Below are positions 2,242-63,291 of a stretch of 64,000 bases of DNA, one piece after another. Position numbers and translations under genes: made by a program. Source of the stretch: a virus; the IMG/VR virus record IMGVR_UViG_3300045283_000116, positions 20,693 through 84,692 of that record, one strand, 5' to 3'. Numbering within the stretch: the stretch's first letter is position 1; every line of letters begins with the position of its first letter. A model generated the notes under the pieces. It had not been told where the DNA came from. It made no database searches and saw only the letters and a program-made list of their open reading frames with translations.

Positions 2242-2699
2242 TGGTCGTCATCACGCCCGATCTGGCGGGCTACGAGGAGGCCCACAACCGGGCTCGCGAC
2301 TACATGGGCGTGCCGATCGTCCTGTTCGGCCCGGTGGAGAGCACCTGGCCGCCGGGCACACCGGTCGATCCTCTGACTGGAGTCCCGATGGACCCGACGC
2401 TCGAGCCCATCTCCTCGGCCGCGGCTTCGGCGCTCGTCCACGGCAAGGTCGGCTTCCGGGCGGTGATCCGCGGGTTTAGCGCAGGCTCGTCGGAGGACAA
2501 GTCGGCCGGAGTCATGGACCGCGCCGACGTGATGCTGATCCTGCCGTCTGCCGCTGCGTCCGCGGTCACCGCGATCGACGCCCAGAGCTTCGAGGCGCGC
2601 GACTGGACCTGCAAGATCGAGACCTACAAGTTCGACGGCGTCGCCGGGATCGACCGCTTCCTGATCTACGGTAGGCGCATCTCGGAGCCACGGCTGTGA
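2241..2699 (+). CDS. putative head-to-tail stopper
   Basis: GTG overlaps the upstream TAG; 152 aa beta-rich; synteny. Confidence 0.5.
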   Translation: MVVITPDLAGYEEAHNRARDYMGVPIVLFGPVESTWPPGTPVDPLTGVPMDPTLEPISSAAASALVHGKVGFRAVIRGFSAGSSEDKSAGVMDRADVMLILPSAAASAVTAIDAQSFEARDWTCKIETYKFDGVAGIDRFLIYGRRISEPRL

Positions 2700-3181
2700 T
2701 CTCCCGCGAAGACCTGATCGACAAGTCCGTCCGCGAGTTCGCCCGGCAGTATCTCGTCACGCGCGGCTACGGGCCGGACAAGCTGCGCTGGATCGAGAGC
2801 TTCCCGCACTCGCTGGAGTCGCTGGACGGCGTGTCACTCGCCGCGGTCGGCTTCAACTTCGACGACGAGGGTCGCGAGGCCGAGATGGGCTCGTCGCTCA
2901 CAGAGCGCAACTACACGATCGAGTTCTTCGTCTTCGGCGTCGACATGGAGATCGCGCGCAACGTCGCGAACTGGATGAAGTTCGCACTGGAGTCCGACGA
3001 ACAGGGCACGCTCCCGCTCATGGACTACGGCCAAGACCCGCCTGTCGAGATCGACCGGCTGCGCGTCGACGGCGTGTCGACGCATCACCAGGCGTTCCTT
3101 GACCCCGAGCCGTGGCAGGAGTTCACCTGGCTCACGACCGTCCGCGTGGAGGACATCTACTACGCCTCGACGCTGGCCTGA
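2696..3181 (+). CDS. putative tail terminator
   Basis: 161 aa, GTGA overlap; synteny. Confidence 0.5.
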   Translation: MISREDLIDKSVREFARQYLVTRGYGPDKLRWIESFPHSLESLDGVSLAAVGFNFDDEGREAEMGSSLTERNYTIEFFVFGVDMEIARNVANWMKFALESDEQGTLPLMDYGQDPPVEIDRLRVDGVSTHHQAFLDPEPWQEFTWLTTVRVEDIYYASTLA

Positions 3182-3876
3182 TGGCGCAGTGGTACGACAT
3201 CTTCGTCGTCGAGGATGTCGGGCCGATCTACGAGCACTTCGACCGCATCATCATCCAACTCAGGGAGCTTGAGGCCGCGGGCGTTGCGGGCATCGCGGGA
3301 GCGGGGTTCCTGGCGAGGGTCCAGAAGTCGCTCCTGAACTTCATGGACGGGCTGGAGTTGGCGGCTCGCACCGCGGCGGTCCAAGCCCAGCAGGAGATCG
3401 TCGGGAAGATCGCGGCAACCCAGGTCCGCCCCGACACCGGGCGACGCCCCGGCCTGGCTGCTGCGATACGCACGGCGGTGCTGGAGCCACGCGGGGGCCT
3501 GCCGACCGGGGCGGTCGGCGTCGGCAACATCAATACGCTCGATCGCCTCACGACACGGAGCGGCAGGATGGCGCGCTACGGCCCGTACTGGCGTTCCCAG
3601 GAGTACGGCTTCCGGCCGCGCGGTCGCCAGCTTTCGGGCATCCGCGGCTTCTTCACGGGACCGGGCTTCGGGAACGTCGCGCCGAGTCCCGGCGCGTTCC
3701 GCGATCAGCCCACATTCGAGGCCCGGCGCGGCGGACCTCTGATGCGTCCGAGCGGCTACCAGGGCCGGTTCTTCCTGCGTGACGGCTCCGCCGCCGCCTT
3801 CGCCGCCTACAAGCGGGAGCTCCTGGCGCTCCAGGACCGGATCGACGCCGAGCTCGCGCCGATCCTCCGCTACTGA
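3181..3876 (+). CDS. putative neck/tail-completion protein (HK97 gp10-like)
   Basis: ATG overlaps the upstream TGA; basic, with a YWRSQEYG...GRFFLRD pattern. Confidence 0.45.
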   Translation: MAQWYDIFVVEDVGPIYEHFDRIIIQLRELEAAGVAGIAGAGFLARVQKSLLNFMDGLELAARTAAVQAQQEIVGKIAATQVRPDTGRRPGLAAAIRTAVLEPRGGLPTGAVGVGNINTLDRLTTRSGRMARYGPYWRSQEYGFRPRGRQLSGIRGFFTGPGFGNVAPSPGAFRDQPTFEARRGGPLMRPSGYQGRFFLRDGSAAAFAAYKRELLALQDRIDAELAPILRY

Positions 3877-3898
3877 GCGTCTGTCAGAGAGCGCCTCC

Positions 3899-3912
3899 AG
3901 TCGTAGATTAGG
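3899..3912 (+). promoter_or_regulatory. AGTCGTAGATTAGG motif copy 2
   Basis: Exact repeat, upstream of the tail genes. Confidence 0.6.
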
Positions 3913-3942
3913 AGCGCAACGGCGACGTAGGCAAGGACTGGC

Positions 3943-4206
3943 GTGGACCGAGAGCAGTATCTCCACAGGCGGAAGGCGAAGTACATGGCTCAGACGCTTG
4001 AGGAGTTCGAGAACAAGATCGAGCCCCTCTTGCCGGACACGACAGAAGCACGCGAGGCGCGGGACCACTTCAAGGGCCTGTGCCGAGGGCGCTTCAACGG
4101 ACTGGCAGTCGACGGCTGTGAACTGCTCAAGCTGGATGGGATTTCCGAGATCAACGGCGTCGCGCAAGGCATTCGAGACCAACTTTCGCCCGTCGGCCGA
4201 CCCTGA
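3943..4206 (+). CDS. hypothetical protein
   Basis: 87 aa, AAGGA RBS. Confidence 0.65.
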   Translation: MDREQYLHRRKAKYMAQTLEEFENKIEPLLPDTTEAREARDHFKGLCRGRFNGLAVDGCELLKLDGISEINGVAQGIRDQLSPVGRP

Positions 4207-6760: not shown

Positions 6761-7077
6761 CCTCGGACGAGTGGCTGAGCATCGTCAAGCTCGCCCGCGA
6801 CCTGGGGTCGATCGACCACCTACTGCCAGATCACGTTGAAAGCCTCATCGACATCCCGTACACGCTGGCCGCAGCCATCAGCCTTGCGACGACAGTCTGG
6901 AATTGGCGCGAGAACCTCGCGTCCGACGAGATCCCTCCGCGGCACATCTGGCTGGACGGTGAGCTTGTGACCGACTGGTTCGCCGAGGTCGACGCCGCCC
7001 GCGAGCGCAAGTACAAGGGCGAGCCGGACGGGGAGCAGAACGAGGCCGTGAACGCCCTGGTGGTCGGCGATGGCTGA
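6745..7077 (+). CDS. tail assembly chaperone frameshift extension (GT)
   Basis: Open -1 frame overlapping the tape measure start. Confidence 0.8.
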   Translation, partial: GKSLLTSDEWLSIVKLARDLGSIDHLLPDHVESLIDIPYTLAAAISLATTVWNWRENLASDEIPPRHIWLDGELVTDWFAEVDAARERKYKGEPDGEQNEAVNALVVGDG

Positions 7078-10000
7078 TCGCAGCATCAACCCCGAGACCA
7101 ACGTCAAGCTCGACAAGCTCGAGTCGACCGTCTCGCGTTTGGACACCCGCCTCGGGCAGGAGGCGCAGATCGCACGGGAGAACGCGGCGAAAGTCGAACG
7201 CGCCGCTACGCGCCGCGCTGCCGCCGCGGAGCGAGGGACTGCACCCGCGGCGGGACCGACCGAGAAGGCGACGATCGACGAGGCCACGCTGAGCACCGAG
7301 CGCCTCGTCAAGGCGCAGGCGGATGCGCTGGCCGCGGCGCGGCAACGGCTGGCGGTCGAGCAGGAGGAGGGCCGAGTCCTCGCCGCGAACGCGGCCACGA
7401 TCAGCGCGCAAGCTGAACGGGTCCGCGCGGCCGCGCGCCAAGAGAGCCCGCTGCTCCAAGCTGCGACTCGAGTCCAGCGTCTCAACGATCCGGCGCTGAT
7501 CCAGGCCCGTGCCGAGCAGGAGGCGGCGATCGCGGCCCGCGGCCGGGCGTACTCGTCGCAGAAACTTCTCGGCCCCGGCCCGCAGCCGACACCGCAGCTC
7601 CTCCTCGGCGCGGGTCCACAGCCACCGCCGCAACGCCTGCTCACGGCGGGCGAAGACCTGTCGAAGGTCGCCAAGGGCTACGGCGACATGGAGCACGCCC
7701 AGGCCGCCGCGGAAACCCAGACGGCTCGCTCGACCCAGACGACCAGCCTGTTCTCCCGCGAGCTACGAGAGCTCGACGCCCAGCTTGAGTACGAGGCGCG
7801 CGCCTACAACCTCGCGGCCGACGCTGCGGCCCGGCATGGCCTGCTGACCAGCGAGACGATCGGCTACATGGCGCGCGGTCAGGTGACGGCCCGCCAGTTC
7901 GGCGCGGAGATCCTCGGCACGATTGGCAAGTTCGCGGGCTGGACGGCCGCGGCGTCCCTGACCTTCGGCGCGGTTCGCGCGCTCGGCCTGCTGGGCAAGG
8001 GCGCGGTCGACGCGGCGTCCGGTGTCGGGCTCGTCTCGCGCGTCCTGAACAACGTCGACTCGTCGAAGCTCCAGCAGAGCTTCCGGGACCTCAGCGCGCA
8101 GTTCAACGTCCCGATCGAAGACACGGTGCAGGCGGTCTACGGCTCGGCCAAGGTCTTCAACGACCAGGCCGACGCGGTGCAGGGGGCCACGGTCGCGTTG
8201 TACGCGATGAAGGTCGGCGAGCTCACCGCCGCTCAGTCGACGCAGTACCTCAACGCGATCGTCAACGGCTTCAAGCTCACTGCCGCCGACCTGCTGCCCG
8301 TTCTCGACTCGGTCAACAACGTGCAGAACCGTTTTGGCGGCAACCAGGGCCAGCTCATCGCGGGCGTCGCCAAGGCTGCGGGCGCGTTCCGGCTGGCGGG
8401 CGGCAACTTCCGCGACCTGATCGCCCTGATCGAGACCGGCACGAAGCTGACCGGCGCGTCCGGGGAGAACGTTGGTACGGCGATCTCGCGCGCCGCGTCG
8501 AGACAGCTCACACCGCAGGGCGCTGCGGCCCTGCGGTCGGTCGGGATCACGCCGGGCGGCGGGTTCATGGACACCCTGACGCAGGCGGTCAAGCTCGCCA
8601 AGGACGCGTCGCCGGAGCAGGTCAACGCCCTCGCGCGAGCCCTGGTCCCTTCGGGTGGTCAATTCGCCCGGTTCTTCATCCCGATCATCCAGAACCCGCA
8701 GCTCTTGCGGCGGATTCAGGGCGCGGCCGGGGAGGACCAGGCTCAGGGTTCCGCCGCTCGCGAGTTGCGCCACGCCCTCGGGCAGGTCAACGAGCAGATC
8801 AGCGCCATCGGCCACGGGATCGAGCGACTCGGGTCGGCGTTTGCGTCGGCCGGTGGCCTCGGCGGCGTCGGACTGCTGGTTCGCGTCCTGAACCAGGGCC
8901 TCACGATGACGACGAGCCTGGTCGAGGAGATCAGCAAGATCCCCGGCATCAAGGTCGCCCTCCCGTTCCTTGAGCTGTACGGGATCGTCAGGGCGCTCAA
9001 GTTCTTCAACCTTGGCGGGTCGCTGCCGGGAGCCCAGCCGGGATCGCTTCGCGGCGGCATCCAGGGTCTCGTCACTGCGAGCCCGGAGCGGATTCAGAAC
9101 CGGGAGATCCTCAAGGACTTCGAGTCCGAGCGAAACCAGCTTTCCGGCGAGGCTCAGAACGCTGCGAGGGCAAGCCGCCTGGCCGCTTCGCGAGCGAAGA
9201 ACCTCGCGATCGCAGCAGAGCAGATGGCTGTCGGGACGGAGGAGCAGGAGGCGGCGGTAGAGCGCGCCAACGTCGCGTTCCGCAAGTCGACCGAGGCGGC
9301 GCTGCTCTCCGCGCAGAAGGCCGAGGAGTTCCAGGCGCTCAACGAGCGCGAGGGCATCTACCGCTCCCTCCAGAGGGGCGGGATGGCCCCCATCCCAGCG
9401 ATCACCGCCGCGGGCGGCAGGTTCGGGACCGGCACCCTGGAGCACGGGGCTGGTGGCGTACCGGTCGAGTACGCACGGTCGCTCGACGCGGCGGCCGTGG
9501 CCGACCACAGGGCCGCGGTGGAGGCGGAGGCGTCGGCGAGGACTCGGGCCACGGCGGCAGCCGATGTCGTGGCGGCCGAGGAGGTCGCAGGCGCGCGCCG
9601 GGTGGCGGTCGTGCGGGAGGGCGTCACCACCATCTCCGAGATCGAGGCGGTCGGGATGGCCGCAGTGGCGACCCGCTGGGAAGTCGGGATGGAGCGGATC
9701 ACCGCGGCCACCGTTGCCGGATTCGGCGTGATGGGAGCGGCGGTGAGGGTGGGACGCGCCGTCCCCGGTGCCGTTCGCACGGGGCTCGGAGCACGGATTG
9801 GCGGGCCGGTCGAAGCGCTGTTCGTCGCCGGGATCACCAGCAAGGCGATCTACGACCACTACGACAACTACGCCAAGCAGGAAAAGAGCTTCTCGGACGC
9901 GGCGAACGCCGGGACGGTGAACCTCGAGAAGACGGTTACGCAGGGCAAGGCGATCCAGAAGCAGAACGAGGTCACGGCGACAGGGCTGCTGAGCGACGTT

Positions 10001-12091
10001 GCGCAGGGCAAGGTCGGAGACCTCTACTTCAAGGTCACGACCGGAGTCGGGAATTGGGTCAGGGACCAGCTCGGGCTTTTCAACCAGGCCAAGCAGGACC
10101 GGGAGAACACGGAGGCGCTCGCGTCGGAGCTTGCGCATCAGAGGCTCGCTCAGGGCACCGGCATCACGCGCACCGACCGACAGTCGCTCATCGACGAGCA
10201 GTTGAGGAACCTCCCCGACTGGTATCGCAGCAACCCGGCGGTCCAGCGGCAGGCCGCTCAGGTGGCCGACCGGGAGATAGCGGCAGCCAAACGACGCGGG
10301 GCCGCGGGGCAGGGCACGCTCCTGACGACGAACCAGATCGACCGGGGGCTCAGGCAGCGACTCGCCGACGCCACGAGCGACAAGGAACGCTTCGACGCCT
10401 ACGACAAGGCGTCGAGCGACTTGAGCAACTCCTACGCCACGATCTTCGGCGGGAGGCAGGCCAAGGCGGCGTCGGCTGCCGAGCGGTCCAAGGTCGTCGC
10501 AGGCCGGGCGCTCCTGTCCGCCCAGACGGGCGACTGGACCGCGCTCCAGAAGGCACTTGCGGACGGCTCGATCTCCCTCGACGGCTACGCCCAGGCGATC
10601 ACCGACACGATCGCCCAGACGGGCGTCACGGGCGTCACGGTCAAGAGGGCGCAGTACGGGATCGAGCAGGCCCTCACGAACCTCGGCAAGGCGGCGTTGC
10701 TGGGTCCCGCGGGTCAGGGCGACGCGACGAAAGCGCTCAAGCAGATCAAGGACATCCAGGACTCGATCACCGGACCTGCCCAGCAGAACTTCCAGACCGC
10801 GTTGTCTCTCGCGCAGACCCCGCAGCAGGACGAGGCGGCTCGCCAGACCTACCTGGATCAGGCCCCCCGCTTCATCATGGGGGTCTTCAACAGGAGGATT
10901 CGCGCCGCGCTGGCCGACATCGCGCGACTCCAGCTTCTCCCTCGCACGACCGCCAATCTGCAAGCGCTCCGCGAGGACAGGTCGACCCTCGCGCAGACCC
11001 GCCAGCAGAGGGGCCTGTACCAGCCGACGTTCGACGCGACGGTCCTACAACAGAGCCAGCAGCATCTCGAGCAGAGCGTCTTCCCGCTGATCGACTCGAG
11101 GGCCGCGCTCGCCGAGGCCAGAACCTCAGACCCGACCGAGAAGATGCGGATCGCGCTGGAGGCAATCAACCACAAGATCCGCGACATGGTGAAGGCGCAC
11201 CTGACGCACACCAAGGAGTTCATCGACCTCCAGACCGCGGCCGCCACGGCGTTGCAGAACGTCGCCGACAACGCCGTGCAGCAGTACGACGACCAGGCCG
11301 CGGTCGCCGACTCGGCCGCGGGGATCGGAGCGACCCAGGCCCAGAAGCTCACGACGGCGCTCAACCGCTCGATCGACCGGCTCGCATTCCTGCGCAGCCA
11401 CCACGCCTCCGCACACGACATCTCCCAGCAGATCGTCGCGGTCAACAACAACCGCGCGGCGTGGCAGGACTACCTGACCGGCCAGGCCCAGGCGTACGTC
11501 CGGGCGTCGGCCAATCTCGCGGCGAGCGGCACCACAGACCCGGTGAAGCTCGCAGATATCAACTTGAGGCGCGACATCCAGTTGAGCAAGTACGCGCAGA
11601 CCCCGGCCGAGAAGATCGACGCGCTCGCCACGGTCCGTAGCGACCGGCAAGCTCGGCGTCAGGCGGGCTGGCAGGACCGGCTGGACACGATCAACTTCAA
11701 CCTCGACATGGGCCGGATCAGCAAGGACATCGCCGCCACGGAGATCGAGGCGCTGGCCCGGAGGGTCAAGAACAACAAGGCGTACAAGAACCAGCTCCTG
11801 CTGCAAGCGCACGAGCTCCGCGCGTCCCAGGCTGACGCCAGCAACTACGAGCTCAACGTCGGCAACATCAAGTTCCCGACCGCGTACGAGGTCATGCGCG
11901 GCATCGGGCAGGCCAACAAGGCTTCGTCGCGGACGCTGAGCACCGGCAACGTTCATGCGACTGCAAACGCAACTATCAACGTCAACGTGGCGAACAGGGG
12001 CGACGTGGGCGCGGTCTCCGACGCGATCGACACGGTTCTGTCGACTCACGTCCGATCCACGCTGCGGGCGAAGGGAGTGCTTGGCGGATGA
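7070..12091 (+). CDS. tape measure protein
   Basis: 1673 aa Ala/Gln-rich helical protein directly after the chaperone. Confidence 0.9.
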   Translation: MADRSINPETNVKLDKLESTVSRLDTRLGQEAQIARENAAKVERAATRRAAAAERGTAPAAGPTEKATIDEATLSTERLVKAQADALAAARQRLAVEQEEGRVLAANAATISAQAERVRAAARQESPLLQAATRVQRLNDPALIQARAEQEAAIAARGRAYSSQKLLGPGPQPTPQLLLGAGPQPPPQRLLTAGEDLSKVAKGYGDMEHAQAAAETQTARSTQTTSLFSRELRELDAQLEYEARAYNLAADAAARHGLLTSETIGYMARGQVTARQFGAEILGTIGKFAGWTAAASLTFGAVRALGLLGKGAVDAASGVGLVSRVLNNVDSSKLQQSFRDLSAQFNVPIEDTVQAVYGSAKVFNDQADAVQGATVALYAMKVGELTAAQSTQYLNAIVNGFKLTAADLLPVLDSVNNVQNRFGGNQGQLIAGVAKAAGAFRLAGGNFRDLIALIETGTKLTGASGENVGTAISRAASRQLTPQGAAALRSVGITPGGGFMDTLTQAVKLAKDASPEQVNALARALVPSGGQFARFFIPIIQNPQLLRRIQGAAGEDQAQGSAARELRHALGQVNEQISAIGHGIERLGSAFASAGGLGGVGLLVRVLNQGLTMTTSLVEEISKIPGIKVALPFLELYGIVRALKFFNLGGSLPGAQPGSLRGGIQGLVTASPERIQNREILKDFESERNQLSGEAQNAARASRLAASRAKNLAIAAEQMAVGTEEQEAAVERANVAFRKSTEAALLSAQKAEEFQALNEREGIYRSLQRGGMAPIPAITAAGGRFGTGTLEHGAGGVPVEYARSLDAAAVADHRAAVEAEASARTRATAAADVVAAEEVAGARRVAVVREGVTTISEIEAVGMAAVATRWEVGMERITAATVAGFGVMGAAVRVGRAVPGAVRTGLGARIGGPVEALFVAGITSKAIYDHYDNYAKQEKSFSDAANAGTVNLEKTVTQGKAIQKQNEVTATGLLSDVAQGKVGDLYFKVTTGVGNWVRDQLGLFNQAKQDRENTEALASELAHQRLAQGTGITRTDRQSLIDEQLRNLPDWYRSNPAVQRQAAQVADREIAAAKRRGAAGQGTLLTTNQIDRGLRQRLADATSDKERFDAYDKASSDLSNSYATIFGGRQAKAASAAERSKVVAGRALLSAQTGDWTALQKALADGSISLDGYAQAITDTIAQTGVTGVTVKRAQYGIEQALTNLGKAALLGPAGQGDATKALKQIKDIQDSITGPAQQNFQTALSLAQTPQQDEAARQTYLDQAPRFIMGVFNRRIRAALADIARLQLLPRTTANLQALREDRSTLAQTRQQRGLYQPTFDATVLQQSQQHLEQSVFPLIDSRAALAEARTSDPTEKMRIALEAINHKIRDMVKAHLTHTKEFIDLQTAAATALQNVADNAVQQYDDQAAVADSAAGIGATQAQKLTTALNRSIDRLAFLRSHHASAHDISQQIVAVNNNRAAWQDYLTGQAQAYVRASANLAASGTTDPVKLADINLRRDIQLSKYAQTPAEKIDALATVRSDRQARRQAGWQDRLDTINFNLDMGRISKDIAATEIEALARRVKNNKAYKNQLLLQAHELRASQADASNYELNVGNIKFPTAYEVMRGIGQANKASSRTLSTGNVHATANATINVNVANRGDVGAVSDAIDTVLSTHVRSTLRAKGVLGG

Positions 12092-12531
12092 CCGTGGTGC
12101 ACAACGTCTTCACGAACCCGGCGACCGGCGACCAGTTCACGTGGCCGATCAACCACGACACCGAGGACATGGGCGGGCGCTCGCGGCAGATCACCTACAG
12201 CGGCAACACGAAGCAGGTCGGCCTGGTCCGCCAGCAGGGCGACAGTATCCCGATGCAGTTCAAGTACAGCGGAACGTTTTTCGATCAGGCGTCAATCCAG
12301 CGCATGTTCGACTTCTACAACCTCGGCCGCAGCCAGACGATCTACTTCACGGACTTCTCCGGGGCGATGTACGAAGTGCTCATCACGGAGTTCACGCCGG
12401 TCCGCAAGCGCACGGTGCGCAACAGCCGGGACTTCGCGCACGCCCCGACGTGGTACTGGACCTACACGATCACGATGGACGTGGTCACCGTTCTCGCTGG
12501 CTACCTGCTGGGCCACGTCGTCGACGCATGA
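12088..12531 (+). CDS. distal tail / minor tail protein
   Basis: 147 aa, ATGA overlap after the tape measure. Confidence 0.6.
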   Translation: MTVVHNVFTNPATGDQFTWPINHDTEDMGGRSRQITYSGNTKQVGLVRQQGDSIPMQFKYSGTFFDQASIQRMFDFYNLGRSQTIYFTDFSGAMYEVLITEFTPVRKRTVRNSRDFAHAPTWYWTYTITMDVVTVLAGYLLGHVVDA

Positions 12532-14924
12532 GCCCTCGTCCACTCGGCGCACGCGGTGTCAAGGACGTACCGAAGCTCCGCGCCGCGCAGTTCCTCCAGC
12601 CGCCGAGCGCGGAGGCGGGTCCGGAGGGCAGCACCGGCTCTCGCGGCACAGCACCGATCGACACGATCAACCACTTCGCCGGGATCGGCTTCGACACGGT
12701 CAGCAACCAGGTCTACGGGACCTGCTGCCCCACGGGTATCGGCAACTTGATCCGCCTGACCTCGGGCTACTACACCGACCGGCAGATCCAGCCGTCGTCC
12801 GATGATGTCTACGACCTGTACCGGCGCGCGGGCAATCCGGGCTTCGTGCCGGGCGTGTCGGTCCAGGACGGCCCGGACGACCAGGGGTGCTATATCCAGG
12901 ACGCCCTCGACGAGGTCCGCATCAACGGGATGGGGGCGGGCAAGTACGGCCGGGTCTACGCCCTCGCGCACGCCACGGTCGACCACACGAATGAGGCGGA
13001 GCTCAAGCAGGCCATGCAGATTTTCGGCGGCCTGCTCTACCAGACGGAGATTTCGGCGGCCCAGGACGCGGCCTACGAGGTCGTCTACGCGGAGGCCACG
13101 GCCGGAATCCCGGTCGACCTCAAGGACCCTGACACGTGGTGGGACGGGTTCTCGGGGGAGGACCGTGGCGCTCATGTGACGGTGGCCGGAGCCTACGAGC
13201 CGACCGAGATGCAGGACATCATCACCTGGGGCTATCGCATCCCGACGACCCGCAACTACCGGCAGGTCAATGCGGGGCGTCTCCAGGAGGTCTGGATCGT
13301 CATCTGGCCGTGGACGCTGGAGCACCCGAACTTCCAGGAGGGCGTCGACTACGACGCGCTCCAGACCGCCTACCACGCCCTGACGGGCGGCAACCTGCCG
13401 CCGCAGCCGACCCCGACCTCGATCGCGGGGCGCTGGAAGTCCGGCAAGCACGTCGGGGCTGCCAAGCCGCGCGCGAATGTGATGGTCCGCCGCGGCCATT
13501 ACCACCGCCGCTACTCGGCCGACGGCGTGTGGCAGGCCGTCTGGGTCGCGGACTCCGACTGGATGGTCATCCCGAACATCACGCAGATCACGCTCGAGTC
13601 GAGCTTCGACAGCAACGGCGTGACGGTGGCGACCGTCCAGATGGACAACGTCGGCTACATCAATGCCGTGGGCGCTCTCGGCGATCCGTTCCACAAGATC
13701 GAGCGCGGCTGGTTCTCGCCGCTGCGGGCGTACAAGGCTCCGGGCCGTCCGAGCCTCTTTCACGAGCCGAACGAGTGGGACCGGCTGCTCACCGACTCGG
13801 TGGAGATCCACATCTCGCAGGGCTACGGGGACCAGATCGTCCCGACCTTCTCCGGGCTCATCGACTCGGCCACCGTCGGCGACCTGCCCGACCAGATCAC
13901 GCTGTCATGTCGCGACTTCGGTCTGAACCTCGTCGACAGCAAGCTGTTCGGCTGGAACATCGACCCCGACAAGCGTGATCCGGTGACGTTCTACGACCGC
14001 GGTCAGGTCCAGCAGCGCCTCGACTCCAAGGTCAAGGCCACGCGGGACGAGGGGGCTCTCCAGCAGAAGAAGGGCGTCCTCATCGACGACCTGTCCGACA
14101 TGGTGAAGATCGCCTGCCGATGGGGCGGCTGGAACGTCAACAACATGCGCATCGACCCGACCGGAAACCTCGGGCCGCACGGACTCAAGGCACAGGGAAT
14201 CGTGTTCGACGTGCAGAGCACGCTCATGGACATCATCAAGAAGGCGTGCGATCTGACCGGCTTCATCTTCTACATCGAGCCCGCGAGCGGCGCGCATCCC
14301 AACGGCCGCCCGGTGTTCAAGCAGTCCGAGGCCGCGGGCCAGAACCCGCCGATCTTCACGGAGATCCGCGACGACCAACTCCTGACTGGAGTCCAGTACC
14401 AGACGGACAACACGCAGAAGGCGAGCATCATCCGGGTCCGCGGCAAGCTCCCGAAGAACGGTCGCGGGGGTCTCAAGCTCGGCGGCGACCAGACCCTCGG
14501 GATCACCGGGCTCTACCGCCCGCCGTGGCACAAGACCATCTACCTGACGGGGACCGACCGCGACGCGCGCGTCCTGCGCCACGAGATCCACCAGGAGCCG
14601 CTGTTCACCACGCAGCACGAATGCGACCTGGCCGCTCAGTTGATCGCCTTCCGGCAGGCCCTCGCTGCCACCACGGCCACCGTCGAGATCCCGGCCTACC
14701 CGTACTTCTACCTCGACCGGGTCCTGACGCTCATGGATCGTCCGTCCGGGATCAATTCCCGCATGTGGCTGGCGCACATCACGAGCACGCAGACGTTGGG
14801 TCAGAACGGCACCTACAAGATGTCGCTCGGCGTGGCGCTGCTCGACAACCCGGACGTGTCGGAGGTCGTCAAGGATCTGATCGTCACGTGGGCCGAGCCG
14901 AACCTCGGGATTACGGGGTGGTGA
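12528..14924 (+). CDS. tail tip/hub protein with an N-terminal papain-like peptidase domain
   Basis: 798 aa from ATG 12528; NQVYGTCC, GAHVTVAGAY and ITWG motifs, then a hub-like beta region. Confidence 0.6.
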   Translation: MSPRPLGARGVKDVPKLRAAQFLQPPSAEAGPEGSTGSRGTAPIDTINHFAGIGFDTVSNQVYGTCCPTGIGNLIRLTSGYYTDRQIQPSSDDVYDLYRRAGNPGFVPGVSVQDGPDDQGCYIQDALDEVRINGMGAGKYGRVYALAHATVDHTNEAELKQAMQIFGGLLYQTEISAAQDAAYEVVYAEATAGIPVDLKDPDTWWDGFSGEDRGAHVTVAGAYEPTEMQDIITWGYRIPTTRNYRQVNAGRLQEVWIVIWPWTLEHPNFQEGVDYDALQTAYHALTGGNLPPQPTPTSIAGRWKSGKHVGAAKPRANVMVRRGHYHRRYSADGVWQAVWVADSDWMVIPNITQITLESSFDSNGVTVATVQMDNVGYINAVGALGDPFHKIERGWFSPLRAYKAPGRPSLFHEPNEWDRLLTDSVEIHISQGYGDQIVPTFSGLIDSATVGDLPDQITLSCRDFGLNLVDSKLFGWNIDPDKRDPVTFYDRGQVQQRLDSKVKATRDEGALQQKKGVLIDDLSDMVKIACRWGGWNVNNMRIDPTGNLGPHGLKAQGIVFDVQSTLMDIIKKACDLTGFIFYIEPASGAHPNGRPVFKQSEAAGQNPPIFTEIRDDQLLTGVQYQTDNTQKASIIRVRGKLPKNGRGGLKLGGDQTLGITGLYRPPWHKTIYLTGTDRDARVLRHEIHQEPLFTTQHECDLAAQLIAFRQALAATTATVEIPAYPYFYLDRVLTLMDRPSGINSRMWLAHITSTQTLGQNGTYKMSLGVALLDNPDVSEVVKDLIVTWAEPNLGITGW

Positions 14925-45104: not shown

Positions 45105-45105
45105 A

Positions 45106-51439: not shown

Positions 51440-51493
51440 GTGCGTACTCCTTTACGCTTGCGTGGAAAATCTACAGGAATGGGACTCGCCGTG

Positions 51494-52633
51494 TCACGGT
51501 GCCTGCGTGGCGGGAACCGGCCCGCTCCGCAGGCCCTTCGCCACCGCAGCCGCCCACGCCTCGTTGAGGTTGTCCTGCATGTCGCCGCCCTTCATCCGCA
51601 CGCGATCGGCGGCGTCGCCGTAGCCGAGTTCGAGCGAGTCCAGCGCGCCGAGCAGCTTGGCGTCGCCCATCGCGCGGTAGTTCCTACGCCAGCCTTTAGT
51701 CGCAGGCTTGGCCCTCGGAGGACCGGGCGAGCTCGCAGGGATTCGCGGCGCGTTGACCGGCACCACTCCGCCCGTCAGGCGGGGGTTGACGGCCGGACCC
51801 GCCATCAAGTCGTCGCGCCTGCGCAGGAACCGCGGGTTGCGCGGCTTGCCGCTCGCGGGGTGCAGGCCGTCGTGCTGAATCTCGATGACCGTGCCGACCC
51901 AATCCTGCGGGTTCGTCCAGATGTCCTCGCGCTGCTGGTCCGTGAAGCCGGTGCCGACCTTCGCGTACGCGCCGGAGCCTTCGATGGAGATCATCAGCGC
52001 GCCGAGTTGCGTTCCGTTGCGCCCGCTGCCGACCTCCATGTCGTAGACCTCGGCCTCGCACGTCTGGACGGGCTTGCACTTGATCCAGCTCGTTGAGCGT
52101 CCGGGTGAGTAGAGCGAGTCGACGCGCTTGAACATCGAGCCTTCGTAACCGGCCATGACCGCGGCCTGGTGCGCACGAGTCGTCGCCGGGCGGGCCGTCG
52201 AAAGCGAGACTTCAGTCCCGACGTTCAGGCCGGACTCGAGCATCGCGCGGCGCTCCGTCCACGGCAGGGTGCGTACGTCCACGCCGTCGCAGCGCAGGAT
52301 GTCGAAGACCACGTAGTGCAGGTCGTGCACGTGGCTGTGGCTCGTCATCTGCGACTGGACCGAACCCCAATCGTCGCCGTCGGGGTTCGCAACGATCTCG
52401 CCGTCGACGCACGTGTCGCGCGGGAGCAGGCCGACAACCCACTCGGCTTCCTTCAACCTCCCGGTGTAGTCGGAGCCGTTGCGGCCGCCGTACGTGTGCA
52501 CGCTGCCGTTCTCGTCGTTCCAGAGCAGTCCGCGCCAGCCGTCGAGCTTGTACTCGTGAATCCACTCGTCGGGGTTGTGGATCGGGTCGCCCGCCTGAGC
52601 GAGCATCGGTGACGCCCACGTGGGAGCAGCCAT
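51494..52633 (-). CDS. ATP-dependent DNA ligase
   Basis: EYKLDGWR, DGEIV, FDIL, EGSMFK, WIKCK, VGTGF, RNPRF. Confidence 0.92.
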   Translation of the reverse strand: MAAPTWASPMLAQAGDPIHNPDEWIHEYKLDGWRGLLWNDENGSVHTYGGRNGSDYTGRLKEAEWVVGLLPRDTCVDGEIVANPDGDDWGSVQSQMTSHSHVHDLHYVVFDILRCDGVDVRTLPWTERRAMLESGLNVGTEVSLSTARPATTRAHQAAVMAGYEGSMFKRVDSLYSPGRSTSWIKCKPVQTCEAEVYDMEVGSGRNGTQLGALMISIEGSGAYAKVGTGFTDQQREDIWTNPQDWVGTVIEIQHDGLHPASGKPRNPRFLRRRDDLMAGPAVNPRLTGGVVPVNAPRIPASSPGPPRAKPATKGWRRNYRAMGDAKLLGALDSLELGYGDAADRVRMKGGDMQDNLNEAWAAAVAKGLRSGPVPATQAP

Positions 52634-52634
52634 G

Positions 52635-52931
52635 TCAGTCCTCCTCTACGAGTTCGGGCTGGCCCGCGACGAATCGCGCTTCCCAGCCGTCCTCGGTGTC
52701 GTCGTAGTCGCAGTTGCGGCAGTGCAGGCCGATCGTGTCGGACGTGTCCCAGAACATCTCGGTGCCGTCGTGGAAGTCGAAGACGAGTTCGGCTTTGCCC
52801 TCCGTGTTCGCGACCACGCCGATCGTCACGCCCAGGTGGCCGATGACCTGTTCGACGGACTTGAGTCCCTCGCTTTCGTGGCACTCCGGGCACACGAGGA
52901 TCTTCGGTTCGTTCGCGTCGGTGGCGCTCAT
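52635..52931 (-). CDS. Zn-ribbon protein
   Basis: CPEC...CRNC. Confidence 0.6.
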   Translation of the reverse strand: MSATDANEPKILVCPECHESEGLKSVEQVIGHLGVTIGVVANTEGKAELVFDFHDGTEMFWDTSDTIGLHCRNCDYDDTEDGWEARFVAGQPELVEED

Positions 52932-53764
52932 GACTTCGCCGCCTTACGCGCGGCGGGCTTCTTCGCGGCGGGCTTCGCCTTGTCCAGCGCGGCGCTCATC
53001 GCAGCCATGAGGTCAGGCACCGCGGCCGCCGCGCTCGGCGCGGAAGTCGCGACGGGAGTCTGGCCGGAGAGCACCTGCTGCACGAGTGCGTCACGCCGTT
53101 GTGCGTACGTGTCGACGAACGCGGTGTGCGAGAAGTCGTCCATGCTCAGACCGGCCGACTGCGCGAACGTCTCGAACGCCTGAGCGGCCTGCTCGTTCTC
53201 CTCAAACTTGTGCTCGCGCACGTCGTTGAGCTCGTTCGTGTACGGGAGCGCGTGGCCGGTGAGCCCGTGCTCGTCCGCCGTGATCGCCATCAGCGCCGGG
53301 CGGGTACCGGCGCGAGCCGAGAACTCCGTGATGACCGCGCGCCCGCTGGCGAGTAGGCCGTTCCACAGGATGTTCGCGGGCTGCTCAGAGCCGGGAACCT
53401 TGTCGTCGGGCACGATGCGGTACTTCGCGCTGGTGAGCGCGGACGGGATGCTGTCCTGCAACGGGAGTCCGAGGATCTCCATCGTGTCGGTTCGGTCCGC
53501 GTCGATGAGCGCCGCGTGCTGCTCGGGCGTGACCGGGCGCACGTCGTTCTTGCCGATGGCGATGCCCTTGTGCATCGCGGCCGTCTCGAGAATCGTGCCG
53601 TCGATCGCGCACGTGTTGTGCTGCTTGATCGGTTCGTCGTGGCACGGGCAGAGGTTCTTGAACCCGCTCGCGCTCGCGCTGGACGAGACGATCGAGTAGC
53701 CCTTCAAGTGGATCGGGAAGCCCGCGAAGTTGATCGCGGATGCCCATGCGGAACGTGCAGCCAT
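52928..53764 (-). CDS. ku: Ku DNA end-binding protein
   Basis: RSAW..AINF..PIHLK.Y; C-terminal DLMAAMSAAL plus basic tail. Confidence 0.85.
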   Translation of the reverse strand: MAARSAWASAINFAGFPIHLKGYSIVSSSASASGFKNLCPCHDEPIKQHNTCAIDGTILETAAMHKGIAIGKNDVRPVTPEQHAALIDADRTDTMEILGLPLQDSIPSALTSAKYRIVPDDKVPGSEQPANILWNGLLASGRAVITEFSARAGTRPALMAITADEHGLTGHALPYTNELNDVREHKFEENEQAAQAFETFAQSAGLSMDDFSHTAFVDTYAQRRDALVQQVLSGQTPVATSAPSAAAAVPDLMAAMSAALDKAKPAAKKPAARKAAKS

Positions 53765-53787: not shown

Positions 53788-54018
53788 CTAGAAGATTCGG
53801 TCGTGGTCGATGAGCCCGCAGCGCAGGCATTCCGCGCCCGCCATGTGGTCATCGTGGTAGTGCCAGACGTGGCCGACGAGCGCACACTTCGCCTGCGCTC
53901 GCTTGGCCTTCGCGACTTCCACCGAGTTGAGTTCGTTGGCGAATCGTTCGCGTGCGAGGAACTTGCGCACCTGCCGCTGGCGTGGCGTCTCGCTAGTTGG
54001 TGTCGGCGACGAGCACAC
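53788..54018 (-). CDS. small Cys/His protein, start uncertain
   Basis: CALVGHVW...CLRCG. Confidence 0.4.
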   Translation of the reverse strand: MCSSPTPTSETPRQRQVRKFLARERFANELNSVEVAKAKRAQAKCALVGHVWHYHDDHMAGAECLRCGLIDHDRIF

Positions 54019-54544
54019 GCGGGAGCCTCTTGAACAGGGTCATGATCGCCTCGTGGAGCGCGCCCTCGCTCTCCATGTGCTTGATGTCGATCGGGCCGAT
54101 CGGAACGTCGAGGTTGTTCGCCTCGTCGCGCACCCACACGGTGACTTCGCCCTCGCCCATGTTGATCTTCACGAGCGCGGCGACAATGTCCTCGGGCAGG
54201 TTCGCAAGCTCGTCCGCGAACATCTCGAGTGCCTGCTCGGGAGCCCTTCCCAGGACTGGAGTCGCAGCCATGAGCACGCGCGGGCACTTGAGGAAAACTT
54301 CCTCCAGCACGCGCGCCGGGTCGAACGTGACCTCGGGGATCGGCTGATCCATCGTGTCGGTCTTGTTCGCGTGCTTGCGCTCGACCTCGTAGCCGAGTTC
54401 GACCGCCATGTCCACGATCGCCGCGGACGTGGGCACTGCGCCCTCGTCGAACGCGAAGGCGATCTGCGAAGCGTCGCGCTGCGACAGGCCGGTGAGCGCG
54501 ACGATGCGCTCGACGAGCTCCTGAAAGTCATCCATGACGGGCAT
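53993..54544 (-). CDS. hypothetical protein
   Basis: 183 aa. Confidence 0.55.
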   Translation of the reverse strand: MPVMDDFQELVERIVALTGLSQRDASQIAFAFDEGAVPTSAAIVDMAVELGYEVERKHANKTDTMDQPIPEVTFDPARVLEEVFLKCPRVLMAATPVLGRAPEQALEMFADELANLPEDIVAALVKINMGEGEVTVWVRDEANNLDVPIGPIDIKHMESEGALHEAIMTLFKRLPRVLVADTN

Positions 54545-55793: not shown

Positions 55794-57428
55794 TTAGGTG
55801 ATGTTCTGCGCGAGCTTCGTGCTCGCATCGTTTGACCCGGCGAGGTCTTGCACGTCGACGACGTACTCGCACATCTGGCCGAGATAGGCGTTGTTCGGGC
55901 ACAGGATCGAGATCCCGTGGATGCGCACGCCGAGTTCGTTCAGCGCGTGCTTGATCGTCTGGTCGGCCTCGCGGAAGTAGTCCTGACCGTCCCCGATGAG
56001 GATGATGTCCGCGGTCTTGAACGCGGGCACGTCGCGCATGATCCGCAACGCTGCGGTCATGCCCGTTCGCGTGCTCGTCCCGCCGCCGAAGAAGTGGCTC
56101 GCGTAGTCGAGCACGACGTTCGGGTCCGCGGGCACGCCCTTCGGGAAGAACCATTCCTTGCACTGGTTCTCGCTACCGAACTCGATGCCCGCGAACTCGC
56201 GCTTCTCGCGCTGCGCGATCGTGAGCAGGCACAGTGCGAGCGAGGACGCCCAGACGAACGGTTCGCCGCCCATCGAGCCCGAGCCGTCCGTCACGCAGAT
56301 GATCGGCCCGCGCCCGGCGGGCATCTTGCCGCTCATGTCGTATTGCAGGACCGCGTTGTCCGCGAAGTCCCTCATGAACGTGGTCTTGATGAGCCGGTTG
56401 TCCGAGAACGCCCGCGCGAGTTCGTGCGGGAGCATCCGACTGAAGTCTCGGCCCGTGGTGATGCCCACGGGCTCGATCGGGACGTTCTTCGTTCGAGCCT
56501 CGCGCTTGAAGCGCATGTCGCGATACAGCCGCCCGAGCATGGCCGCGATCTTCTTGAGGTCACGGTTCTCGCTCCACTTCTCCGCGAGCGCGATCTGCTG
56601 GTCGGGCGTGAGGTTGTGCGACTCGCCGCCGCCGATGCCCGGAATCGAGTGGAGAGCTTCGACTGCCTCCGCGCCCGCCTGAGCGGCGTCGCGCGCGGCT
56701 GCGCTGGCGTCGGCGACCACGCTGCTCGTTCGATGCGCGTGGTCGAGTTCGGCAAGAAGTTCGCTCGCGGTCTGGCGACGCTTGGCGACGCCCTTGATCT
56801 CGCGCTTGGTCTGGTCGGTGACCTGACCCGCGTGGTCGATCTCGGCGCGCGCGCGGTCGCGAAGGTTGTCCATCATGTCCTGCGCGTCGCGCATCTCCTG
56901 TTCGACCTGCTCGGCCTCGTCGGCGCGCGCGACGTGCTCGGCCAGCCGCGTCTGTGCGGACTCCTCGAGCGACTTGCGCATCGCCATCGCCCCAAACAGG
57001 GACTCAAGTTCGTTGTTGCGCGTGTACGGGCGCGACTCCTGAAAGCCCTCGCTGATGAGCGTCTCCGCGAGAATCTCACGGTTGAGCCGGTGGCTCAGGC
57101 GCACGTCGTCCGCGCGGCGAAGCTCGGGTTCGTCGAGCGAGAAGTTCGCACGCGCCACGTCACGCAGAAGCTCGGGGAACGTCGACCAGTGATGGTCGTG
57201 CTGCGTCTTGCGCTCGTTGCCGTGCTCGTCGGTCTCCGTGCGCTCGTAGTGCACGATCGGCGGGTTGCGCGTGGCAGCCTTGAACCGTTCGGTTCGCGCG
57301 GCCGACTCCGCGATGATGTTGTCACGCAGCGGGTCCGCGGTCAGGCCCGACTTGCTGAGTTCCTGCGGCTTGCGCGCCGCGATCAGGGAACGAACCCTGT
57401 TCGCGGCGCGCGTGAAGTCCATGCCCAT
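55794..57428 (-). CDS. VWA domain protein (ViaA/CoxE-like)
   Basis: MIDAS DGSGSM...GGGT...IGDG; MLPHEL. Confidence 0.85.
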   Translation of the reverse strand: MGMDFTRAANRVRSLIAARKPQELSKSGLTADPLRDNIIAESAARTERFKAATRNPPIVHYERTETDEHGNERKTQHDHHWSTFPELLRDVARANFSLDEPELRRADDVRLSHRLNREILAETLISEGFQESRPYTRNNELESLFGAMAMRKSLEESAQTRLAEHVARADEAEQVEQEMRDAQDMMDNLRDRARAEIDHAGQVTDQTKREIKGVAKRRQTASELLAELDHAHRTSSVVADASAAARDAAQAGAEAVEALHSIPGIGGGESHNLTPDQQIALAEKWSENRDLKKIAAMLGRLYRDMRFKREARTKNVPIEPVGITTGRDFSRMLPHELARAFSDNRLIKTTFMRDFADNAVLQYDMSGKMPAGRGPIICVTDGSGSMGGEPFVWASSLALCLLTIAQREKREFAGIEFGSENQCKEWFFPKGVPADPNVVLDYASHFFGGGTSTRTGMTAALRIMRDVPAFKTADIILIGDGQDYFREADQTIKHALNELGVRIHGISILCPNNAYLGQMCEYVVDVQDLAGSNDASTKLAQNIT

Positions 57429-58739: not shown

Positions 58740-58792
58740 TGTTCGGTTCTCCAGACTCTAGTTTGACGTTCGGGTCGGGCGGCCTACAGACC

Positions 58793-58821
58793 AGTATGGG
58801 TCGTCGGCCGCCCCATTCTCA
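58793..58821 (-). promoter_or_regulatory. TGAGAA-N17-CATACT promoter copy 1
   Basis: Points into the AAA/VWA operon; same motif at 61885 and 63289. Confidence 0.7.
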
Positions 58822-61196: not shown

Positions 61197-61516
61197 CCCT
61201 ACCTCCCTGTTCGCCTACAAGTGGCGTTGGAGCGGGAGAGCGCGCGCGTCTCCGCGCCCGGCTCTCCACGCTCCAAGAGCGTTGGAGCGGGAAAGCTCGC
61301 GTGCCCGCTCGCCGTGGTATTGGCGGGCGTACGTGCGAGGCTTTCCAACGCTCCACGTTCGTTCGCAAGGTCGCGCGGTGCGCGGTTCGACTTGCGTAAG
61401 TTCGGTGTCCGTTCGGACACGTGCCGTTCGGACATGCGCCGGGGCGCGGTCGGCACGCGCGGGAGCGCGCCCCCGCCCGCCCGCGTGGGAGCGGGCGGGC
61501 GGGCGGCGCGCCCGTA

Positions 61517-61846
61517 CTAGCTGGCGGCCGGGGCGGGCGCGGCGGCCGGTGCGGCCGGGGCGGCCGGGGCGGCGGCGGCGGGCTTGGCGGGCTTGGCGGG
61601 CGCGGTGACGATCAGACCGGCGGCGAGCGCGCGGGCGAAGTCAATCACGCGGCCGGTGGGCCGGTAGGACCCGCTCGTGCTCAGTCGGCAAAGCACCGGG
61701 TCGGTCTCGCCTTCCCGCGCGCACACCGCGAGCGTAACGCCGTCTGTCGTGACCGGCTCGCCGCCCGCGACCGGGACCCGCTTGGCGGCGGTGTCCGGGG
61801 CGGCGGTGCTGACTGCGCCGTCTGTCGTCGGCAGGGTGATGCTCAT
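61517..61846 (-). CDS. hypothetical protein with a Pro/Ala tail
   Basis: 109 aa, GGAG RBS, downstream of promoter copy 2. Confidence 0.55.
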   Translation of the reverse strand: MSITLPTTDGAVSTAAPDTAAKRVPVAGGEPVTTDGVTLAVCAREGETDPVLCRLSTSGSYRPTGRVIDFARALAAGLIVTAPAKPAKPAAAAPAAPAAPAAAPAPAAS

Positions 61847-61884
61847 GTTGCGACTCCGTTCTGTCGTTGATGTACTTACACCGC

Positions 61885-61913
61885 AGTATGGGCCGACCGG
61901 CCCGCCGTTCTCA
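61885..61913 (-). promoter_or_regulatory. TGAGAA-N17-CATACT promoter copy 2
   Basis: Exact hexamers and 17-bp spacer. Confidence 0.7.
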
Positions 61914-61932
61914 CAATTCCAAAGGACCCGAC

Positions 61933-63291
61933 ATGAGCATCAATCTGACTGAAGTCCGCGCCGCCGCTTTCCGCCCGCCCGCCGAGCCGGACGACGTGCG
62001 CATCTTCCGGCCGGTGACGGAGTACCTGCCCGCGCCCCGGCCCGCGACCGGCCGCAGTGTCACCGCGTATCTGGCGGCGGCGGATCGGCACACCGACACC
62101 GACGCGGGAGCTTGGCTCTACCGGGAAGCTCGCGCCGCCGTCGTCGGCATCGCCGCGATGCGCGCCGCGACGGAAGATGAGCGGATGGCGCTCATCGGCG
62201 AAGTGTGCGCCGCCGTCGCCAAGCGCGGGAAGCTCGCGCAGGGTGACGCGGGCCGGTGGTACCTACGCCAGACGGCGCGGGCGATCATGCGCGACTCGCG
62301 GACGTGGCTTGACGCGGCATCCCTGCACCGGACCCGCGCCGCCCGCCGCGATGGCGTCGACGCGGTGACGGTCACGACCCACGGGACCGCGACGGACCTA
62401 GCCGAGTACACCGACCCGATGGCGCACCGCGCCGCCGTCAAGCTCGCGGATGCGGACATCGCGCTCGTGCCCGCGAGTCTGTCACCCGTTGCAGCGCTCG
62501 CGGCCGATGCGCTCGTGCCCGCCGCCGCGAAGTCCCGCGCCGCCAAGCACCGCAACGTAACGGCCCGGCTCGTGCAGTCGCTCGCGGGCATGAGCGGGCT
62601 TGATGTGACCGTCGCGCTAGTCGCGCACGGCGGCGAGTCCGGTCGGTCCCTGAAAGCGGTGCAGGCGATGGCCGACCGGGGCGCGGACCTACTCGCCAGC
62701 ACCGACCCGCTGGCGGTGCTCTACGCCGTCCGTAGCGCCATCCGCGAGCACGGCGGCGGCGATGGCGGGGCGCGCCGCGAGCCGGTGGGTATCGACGCCA
62801 TCCGGGCCGACTGCGCCGGGGCGATCCGGGACCTAATCCGGGAGCGCGGCGGGCGCGACGTGGAAAGCATCCGGACGGAACGGGCACTGCCCACGTGGGC
62901 CGACCGGAAAGTGCCCGCCGACGACATGCCCCGGCCCGCCACCGGCCGATCCGTCGTCGCGTACATCGCCGCCCGCTATGACGCACTGCACCGCGTGCCC
63001 GCCCCGGCTCGTGACCGGGGCATCACCGCCGCCCCGGTGGTCACCCTGCCCGCCAAGCGGGAGCGGGGCACTGCCGACTATCGGCCGGGTCGCTCGCCGC
63101 TACTGCCCGCCACTGCGGCCGGTGCCCCGGTGGGCGGCGAGCGGATGCCCGCGCCCCGCTCATGGCGCGATGGGTCGGCACTGCGCGGATGGGCCGGACC
63201 CGGCCCGGATGCCGCCGCCGTCGCGCTCGCCGCCAAGGTCGCGGCGCGCCGCGCCAAGGATGCCGCCATCGCCGCCGCCAACGGAAAGTGA
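61933..63291 (+). CDS. Ala-rich hypothetical protein, weakly sigma-like
   Basis: 452 aa, AAAGGA RBS; internal repeat PRPATGRSV.AY.AA. Confidence 0.55.
   Translation: MSINLTEVRAAAFRPPAEPDDVRIFRPVTEYLPAPRPATGRSVTAYLAAADRHTDTDAGAWLYREARAAVVGIAAMRAATEDERMALIGEVCAAVAKRGKLAQGDAGRWYLRQTARAIMRDSRTWLDAASLHRTRAARRDGVDAVTVTTHGTATDLAEYTDPMAHRAAVKLADADIALVPASLSPVAALAADALVPAAAKSRAAKHRNVTARLVQSLAGMSGLDVTVALVAHGGESGRSLKAVQAMADRGADLLASTDPLAVLYAVRSAIREHGGGDGGARREPVGIDAIRADCAGAIRDLIRERGGRDVESIRTERALPTWADRKVPADDMPRPATGRSVVAYIAARYDALHRVPAPARDRGITAAPVVTLPAKRERGTADYRPGRSPLLPATAAGAPVGGERMPAPRSWRDGSALRGWAGPGPDAAAVALAAKVAARRAKDAAIAAANGK

Follow-up and report, generated by a model that had tools for sequence, protein, structure and literature searches.

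The genome described here belongs to an uncultured soil phage and was recovered as a virus record of 84,692 bp (IMG/VR record IMGVR_UViG_3300045283_000116), with an overall G+C content of 67.2% and an estimated completeness of 97%. The window is the whole stretch of 64,000 nucleotides that was analysed, comprised of bases 20693-84692 of this record, and feature coordinates are window positions. Dispersed over this DNA is a ten-base interrupted palindrome, GACTNNAGTC (GACT-NN-AGTC), hereafter the word, with 25 copies in the window and 29 in the complete record. Gene calling based on codon usage predicted 121 genes, which cover 92% of the genome. The recognisable products are a major-capsid-like protein, an exonuclease, DnaB, an HNH endonuclease, a tyrosine integrase (45227-46225, minus strand; PF00589, E 1e-17), Ku, three GT2 and one GT4 glycosyltransferases, a Methyltransf_11 enzyme, MoxR/vWA proteins, a RuvB-like ATPase and an ATP-dependent DNA ligase, while most of the approximately 70 genes compared with Pfam are orphans. 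Since it encodes a tyrosine integrase, the phage is temperate. The sole match in a cultured phage, at about 30% identity, was to a mangrove-soil phage, and the capsid-region and terminase proteins found no mycobacteriophage match at E<=1e-5. Near-identical DNA is present in soil metagenome runs of 12 studies, the reads of four soil runs show about 1,900 differences from the phage, and a relative of the capsid gene is present in a metagenome-assembled genome of the Actinomycetota.

A preliminary description, made by eye, had given coordinates for 25 sites, and all of these are exact matches to the word. They are listed below, the Thr-x-Val frame being that in which the word is read as xxG-ACT-NNA-GTC.

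2375-2384, GACTGGAGTC: gene 2241-2699 (+), read as xxG-ACT-GGA-GTC; conserved in the relative L001
7465-7474, GACTCGAGTC: gene of tape-measure size, 7070-12091 (+), Thr-x-Val frame; absent at the equivalent place in L001
14384-14393, GACTGGAGTC: gene 12528-14924 (+), Thr-x-Val frame
17307-17316, GACTCCAGTC: gene of a 2110-aa collagen-repeat fibre, 16678-23010 (+), Thr-x-Val frame
19056-19065, GACTGGAGTC: collagen repeat, first of three paralogous copies
19956-19965, GACTGGAGTC: collagen repeat, second of three paralogous copies
20592-20601, GACTGGAGTC: collagen repeat, third of three paralogous copies
23803-23812, GACTGGAGTC: gene 23420-24493 (+), Thr-x-Val frame
25947-25956, GACTGAAGTC: gene 24490-26241 (+), Thr-x-Val frame
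26082-26091, GACTGGAGTC: same gene 24490-26241 (+), Thr-x-Val frame
27564-27573, GACTGGAGTC: 26 nt into gene 27538-27924 (+), Thr-x-Val frame
28739-28748, GACTCGAGTC: gene 28473-29447 (+), Thr-x-Val frame
35326-35335, GACTCCAGTC: exonuclease gene 34206-35390 (+), frame 1
39215-39224, GACTCCAGTC: inside winged-helix gene 38972-39532 (+), frame 0
40890-40899, GACTCAAGTC: gene 40528-40953 (+), Thr-x-Val frame
43336-43345, GACTCCAGTC: intergenic, 10 bp after a GT2 gene and 15 bp before the GT4 start
45187-45196, GACTGGAGTC: intergenic, 30 bp beyond the integrase 3' end, by TTCCACGG repeats (attP-like region)
46055-46064, GACTTGAGTC: integrase gene 45227-46225 (-), Thr-x-Val frame
47109-47118, GACTCAAGTC: gene 47068-47487 (-), frame 0
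50942-50951, GACTCCAGTC: RuvB-like gene 50360-51406 (-), Thr-x-Val frame
52208-52217, GACTTCAGTC: ATP-dependent DNA ligase gene 51494-52633 (-), Thr-x-Val frame
52858-52867, GACTTGAGTC: gene 52635-52931 (-), frame 1
54254-54263, GACTGGAGTC: gene 53993-54544 (-), Thr-x-Val frame
56438-56447, GACTGAAGTC: vWA-like gene 55794-57428 (-), frame 0
61947-61956, GACTGAAGTC: 14 nt into open reading frame 61933-63291 (+), Thr-x-Val frame

The excess of the word, which had first been set against a rough expectation of less than one copy, survives dinucleotide, Markov and codon-preserving null models. Dinucleotide shuffles of the window contain a mean of 1.25 and a maximum of 4 copies versus the 25 observed, and for the genome the expectation is 1.3 copies from a Markov model of order 3 and 2.1 (maximum 5) from one of order 5, versus 29. 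When synonymous codons were shuffled within each gene, a procedure that keeps the proteins and the codon usage, 6.5 copies remained; as roughly six of these are the untouched non-coding ones, about 0.5 coding copies are expected versus the 23 observed, so that the enrichment persists under the very shuffle that had been proposed as its refutation test. Among all dyads with arms of 3 to 5 bases and gaps of 0 to 12, the word is the strongest in the genome (29 versus 0.95 expected, about 1e-32). The half-words GACT and AGTC, and also GANTC, occur at their expected frequency, and selection is therefore on the pairing of the half-words. Copies with one mismatch number 88 versus 22 expected from an independent-base model, and the nine examples named in the preliminary description are all real. 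The collagen-repeat copies at 19056, 19956 and 20592 have flanks in common, which identifies them as paralogous duplicates and leaves about 27 independent exact copies.

Twenty-three of the 29 copies (79%) lie within genes, five are intergenic and one overlaps a stop codon. The coding copies are found in the Thr-x-Val frame in 18 of 23 cases. Four of the eight fixed bases fall at wobble positions in this frame, so that only a Thr-x-Val tripeptide is needed; no other frame uses so many rare codons or constrains the amino acids so little, and it requires two A/T-ending codons in a genome where A-ending codons make up 5% and T-ending codons 6.5% of the total. That the word favours this frame argues for the DNA as the level at which selection acts. 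Full sites are formed by 18 of the 138 Thr-x-Val tripeptides. The codon ACT accounts for 21% of Thr codons within these tripeptides versus 5% overall, and A-ending codons for 22% of those at the central residue versus 5% overall, which bears out the earlier claim that the sites are written with rare codons. Equally, sites had been said to occur in several frames, in both orientations and in intergenic DNA, and this was confirmed: three frames are used, both strands carry sites, and some sites are non-coding. All modules of the genome contain sites, with the highest density at genome positions 33-75 kb and few at both ends. No significant regularity of spacing was detected, and asymmetric centres showed no bias relative to the direction of transcription beyond that of the encoded residue.

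The full site is longer than 10 bp and extends over about 16-22 bp, as a-n-n-Y-n-n-GACT-NN-AGTC-n-n-R-n-n-t. A pyrimidine is strongly preferred at position -3 (T in 8/18 versus a background of 6.5%, p 8e-6; G in 0/18) and a purine at position +3 (A in 6/18 versus 5%, p 2e-4; C in 1/18), while A/T is weakly enriched at positions -6/+6. The centre is GG/CC in 17/29 sites and purine-pyrimidine in none (0/29, p 1.4e-4); correspondingly, Thr-x-Val tripeptides centred on Ala, Thr, Val or Ile are never full sites (0/34), versus 18/78 of the others (p 0.0013). Transition variants are enriched as well, AACT..AGTC 18-fold and GATT..AGTC 13-fold, as expected for a degenerate binding matrix. A 22-bp position weight matrix (PWM) finds 53 sites at >=12 bits versus 2.2 in simulated sequence; applied to seven other phage genomes, it finds 0-5. 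Near copies of the site number 25-35 in all. The best near-consensus copy is GACTGGAGGC at 30327-30336 (PWM 14.8), and about 24 one-mismatch copies have good flanks, for example those at 40331, 28020, 2985, 20091, 47604, 33487, 46452, 37102 and 16277. Beyond 22 bp the flanks of the exact sites are unrelated and form no extended palindrome. Only one site is clearly placed in a leader: at 58754-58821, a near-copy, AACTAGAGTC, separates a promoter-like element (TGAGAA-N17-CATACT) from the Shine-Dalgarno sequence of the gene for the MoxR ATPase.

Comparison with related genomes revealed gain and loss of individual sites despite retention of the word. The IMG/VR contig L001, which aligns with the phage for 11.3 kb (nucleotide identity 85%), contains two exact copies; one copy is common to both genomes and one is private to each, 4/7 of the PWM-level sites are shared, and the differences at sites are largely synonymous. 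At a larger distance, strong homologues of the RuvB-like protein number 447, many of them encoded on contigs of 78-86 kb, which indicates a large soil phage family; the closest of these relatives, on Logan/ENA contigs, show 83% and 67% identity. Six related genomes (G404-G409; 71-86 kb, mostly complete) have 50 of the 121 genes in common with the phage and capsid proteins with 58-66% identity to its own. They contain 0-1 copies of the word and no comparably strong dyad, so that, judged from the genomes compared, the word appears to be private to this sublineage. Scans of IMG/VR with single proteins found no relatives of the repressor-like gene, DnaB or Ku, and an alignment scan with RuvB for close relatives was swamped by Walker-A matches. 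One of the six genomes, G405 (IMG/VR, 83.2 kb), has a weaker word of its own, CAAC-N4-GTTG, in 10 copies versus 0.8 expected (Markov order 3), mostly as CAACTCCCGTTG (e.g. at 5683, 28842 and 52856), together with five copies of AACTNNAGTT; this may be a diverged version of the GACT-NN-AGTC system. An 8-bp palindrome, CGCCGGCG, is present in G404, G407 and G408 in 38-50 copies versus 8-12 expected.

The word may be a property of the host, as would follow from an equal enrichment across the host chromosome. Among 401 sampled Actinomycetota genomes, in which the host of the phage was not identified, no comparable density was found: they contain 0-35 copies each, about 1-10 per Mb, versus 342 per Mb in the phage, and the reversed word used as a control gave similar or higher counts. 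This tally includes 15 unpublished genomes (G121, G002, G175, G392, G227, G049, G240, G019, G337, G149, G083, G269, G319, G344 and G089), of which the conclusion is independent. The sole outlier, G186 (L011, L012), has 114 copies of the word; it contains intergenic arrays of longer hairpins around GGGACTTCAGTCCC that resemble repetitive extragenic palindromes (REP). These hairpins, CCGGGACTTCAGTCCCGG and GCGGACTGAAGTCCGC, are present in about 100 copies spaced 25-40 bp apart (e.g. C15:36755-36859), and their core resembles the DosR box. We rejected G186 as a phage-like array, these REP-like arrays being a different phenomenon.

Selection on the DNA and a two-fold symmetric target, typical of a dimeric binder, follow from the codon-preserving shuffle, the frame bias, the symmetric flanks and the turnover of sites. 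In this respect the proposal of the preliminary description stands; the binder and its function we infer. In the explanation towards which we lean, the sites are docking places for a DNA-binding protein that forms dimers, is probably encoded by the phage and acts over the whole genome, its most likely role being to silence or mark the prophage. A single sequence-specific protein of two-fold symmetry would read the site, and with the number of sites under selection the word would have become written across the genome, mainly through the conversion of Thr-x-Val tripeptides by synonymous changes to the rare ACT and NNA codons plus GTC. Single sites are gained and lost while the overall density is maintained. 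Because the word is private to the sublineage, the reader is most likely a helix-turn-helix (HTH) protein of the phage, and because 79% of the sites lie in genes and all modules carry them, its action is probably genome-wide rather than at promoters. The most likely mechanism would be transcriptional silencing or roadblocking over the entire prophage, similar to stoperators without their orientation; alternatively, the protein may mark the phage chromosome in the manner of KorB or Noc.

The preliminary description had named HTH proteins as candidate binders, and three such genes do exist:

33061-33804 (-), P0123, candidate binder of 247 aa: N-terminal four-helix HTH of ParB/KorB-like fold, C-terminal helical hairpin
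38972-39532 (+), P0122, candidate binder of 186 aa: N-terminal winged helix, weak PaaX match, MarR/PadR/BlaI-like in the Atlas
38763-38972 (+), P0121, candidate binder of 69 aa: winged-helix-like by eye only, no family match

P0123 has a weak HTH_23 match, and its first 66 residues give a confident four-helix model (pLDDT 86); the model of the full-length protein is poor (pLDDT 57), and helical hairpins took up the results of its fold search. The best solved match of the N-terminal domain is the DNA-binding domain of ParB on parS (6s6h, Z 7.1, root-mean-square deviation 3.0, 60 residues), followed by KorB, Spo0J, P1 ParB and VirB, all with middling Z. The Atlas structure search places P0123 with HTH_ParB/KorB clusters (TM 0.67-0.74), while Foldseek returned nothing for the N-terminal domain at E<=0.001 and the ParB_N domain (PF02195) had no hit in the six frames of the phage. 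Among 5.8 billion proteins P0123 has five homologues, and it has no match in cultured phages. P0124, a 99%-identical copy, is encoded on a contig of 91,308 bp, which implies that a longer or more complete variant of the phage exists. A three-gene module, in which two downstream genes accompany the C-terminal part of P0123 (32350-33804, minus strand), is also found in an otherwise unrelated 122-kb phage (G410:71090-72377) with 43-65% identity; the N-terminal HTH is not shared, and that phage is without the word. A single perfect canonical parS, GTTTCACGTGAAAC, is located at 36842-36855 in the first codons of dnaB and is the only copy in the genome within two mismatches; given the ParB-like HTH fold of P0123, it would be an alternative target for this protein.

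Several observations weigh against a phage-encoded reader acting in this way. None of the three candidate genes could be linked to the word, and no binder was identified: the six relatives without the motif lack all three, but they also lack about 70 other genes. In the divergent region (34107-34205) beside the operon of P0123, the only repressor-like module, the operator of a repressor would be expected, but there is no full site, only a one-mismatch copy. From centre to centre the half-sites of the core are separated by only 6 bp, a closer spacing than that of classic HTH operators. The core, moreover, equals that of the DosR box, an identity as compatible with a conserved factor of the host as with a protein of the phage. 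Finally, the relatives without the array show that its function is dispensable for this phage family.

The identity with the DosR core is the basis of a possible, though doubtful, alternative, in which a host regulator of the NarL/LuxR (GerE-type) family, of the DosR/DevR kind, reads the sites; the phage would have acquired the core of that regulator's box throughout its DNA so that its transcription or replication follows the state of the host, e.g. dormancy or hypoxia. Inverted half-sites with a 2-bp spacer are the layout of the NarL family, and the mycobacterial DosR/DevR box shares both this spacer and the 10-bp core with the phage word. GACT-NN-AGTC is the exact core of the 20-bp DosR consensus from electrophoretic mobility shift assays, TTGGGGACTAAAGTCCCTAA (PMC5999986), and helix alpha9 of DosR reads GGGACT (PMC13486717). 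A few dozen regulon sites would not raise the genome-wide counts of a host. No GerE domain was detectable in six frames of the phage, so such a reader would have to come from the host; a reader with a domain of the DosR/NarL kind, either supplied by the host or so diverged that it escapes detection, is plausible by analogy. However, the flanking GG/CC that define the DosR box are not kept, G being present at -1 in only 17/58 half-sites (29%, the background), and the A/T-only centre of DosR is found in 0/29 sites; the phage sites are thus not canonical DosR boxes. Moreover, the motif is missing from six related phages of this family. It is unlikely, but would be the most far-reaching form of this alternative, that a dormancy regulator of the host, activated at shutdown, coats the phage genome and pauses it until revival as a built-in dormancy sensor. 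In that case the genes of the phage would have come to hold about 30-60 copies of the core of a host box, put there by the phage, and the host would be a soil actinobacterium.

It is likewise improbable that the word is the recognition site of a methyltransferase, a nickase or a nuclease of the Type II kind, which would make it an epigenetic mark or a mark of self. Type II sites are typically compact interrupted palindromes whose outer bases do not vary, as is this 10-bp word; the word is also a subset of GACNNNNGTC, and GAGTC or GACTC is contained in 24/29 sites. Phages, however, normally avoid restriction sites, whereas the word is 30-fold enriched here, and the flank preferences out to +/-6, together with the tolerance of transitions, suit a binding matrix better than an enzyme site. 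Scans of the six frames detected no N6/N4, Dam-type or C5 DNA methyltransferase domain, and the analogy drawn earlier with HIP1 and modification systems consequently found no support; the sole methyltransferase, of the Methyltransf_11 type, is encoded among the glycosyltransferases and also occurs in the motif-free relatives.

That the sites are a non-functional by-product of mutation or repair bias, of the spread of tiny repeats or of slow translation at rare codons is highly improbable. Three copies did arise by duplication of the collagen repeat and most copies contain rare codons, but the flanks outside 22 bp are unrelated, the sites are confined neither to one frame or strand nor to coding DNA, the transition neighbours are enriched although a repair drive should have depleted them, related phages of similar G+C content lack the word, and four pairs with a 2-nt loop make an RNA hairpin impossible. 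Other candidates rejected were a Chi-like site (Chi is read on a single strand, asymmetric and abundant in the host), an RNA hairpin (on account of the 2-nt loop), a Shine-Dalgarno by-product (explaining only GG-centred copies just upstream of start codons), a mobile mini-element (unrelated flanks) and a REP-type hairpin element (no extended flank palindrome, 79% of the copies coding).

Some further features of the genome are of note. The attP-like region beside the integrase (45105-45226) contains about four TTCCACGG(T)CC repeats, possibly arm-type sites, and after them the exact dyad at 45187; a search for attB with this region in the 401 sampled genomes found none, as only the short TTCCACGG repeats matched. 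Ku, the ATP-dependent DNA ligase and the full-length RuvB-like ATPase are encoded in one leftward operon (50360-53764, minus strand), and the Ku and ligase genes are missing from the six related genomes. Ku is known from the phages Corndog and Omega, where its role is circularisation by end joining. A sigma-70 consensus scan of 32-47.5 kb found no promoters. The sequence CCGG-N5-CCGG, noted at 16678-23010, has 54 copies in the genome versus 9.4 expected, probably because the collagen-like repeats of the gene for the 2110-aa fibre have a period of 9 bp.

The array can be compared with three kinds of dispersed sites. The stoperators of Cluster A mycobacteriophages are 13-bp repressor sites, asymmetric and oriented with transcription. 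Similar to these, the sites described here belong to a temperate phage, number in the range of about 25-35, are dispersed with many in genes, and are specific to a lineage (PMC4351075, discussion). Unlike stoperators, they are perfect dyads with symmetric flanks and no orientation bias, their centre follows the encoded residue and not the strand, and no full site is present at the putative switch region, so that assignment to the stoperator class was rejected. The OB sites of KorB (RK2), the NBS of Noc and parS are likewise palindromes scattered over a replicon, genes included; they measure about 13-16 bp and have dimeric HTH readers, which the modelled ParB/KorB-like fold of P0123 would match. 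In contrast to these arrays, the phage encodes no ParB_N CTPase domain and the core is unrelated to parS, NBS or OB; assignment to the ParB/KorB/Noc class was therefore rejected, and the canonical parS is a separate feature.

The closest described system is the array of unexplained dyads in the Cluster O mycobacteriophages. These are 17-bp repeats, TGTTCGGNNNCCGAACA, with 34 copies in Corndog, whose function and binder are unexplained and for which a dimeric DNA-binding protein was predicted (PMC4351075). Both systems consist of dozens of inverted repeats throughout the genome, with invariant arms and a variable centre, placed between and inside genes without orientation relative to transcription; dispersed dyads of this type number at least 30 genome-wide, and the phage has 29 exact copies and 53 sites at PWM >=12. 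The genome layout is also similar, with the terminase about 12-14 kb from the left end, Ku, a long leftward operon, and glycosyltransferases plus a methyltransferase. The phage is nevertheless not a member of Cluster O: the word differs in sequence from TGTTCGGNNNCCGAACA and has shorter arms, its proteins have no mycobacteriophage match at the threshold given above, 79% of its copies are inside genes versus about one third to 60% in Corndog, the sites are made by synonymous recoding in one frame, and an integrase is present that Cluster O lacks. The 22-bp site provides a probe which, together with the three candidate genes, makes the question of the reader testable, and the soil phage family of 78-86 kb, in which the word is present, different or absent, constitutes a natural comparative experiment for finding it. 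Dispersed phage dyads have been described since Corndog and are still unexplained; the array reported here adds unusually clean evidence of selection at the DNA level, in the form of a favoured frame, rare codons, symmetric flanks, a forbidden class of centres and turnover between genomes that are 85% identical.

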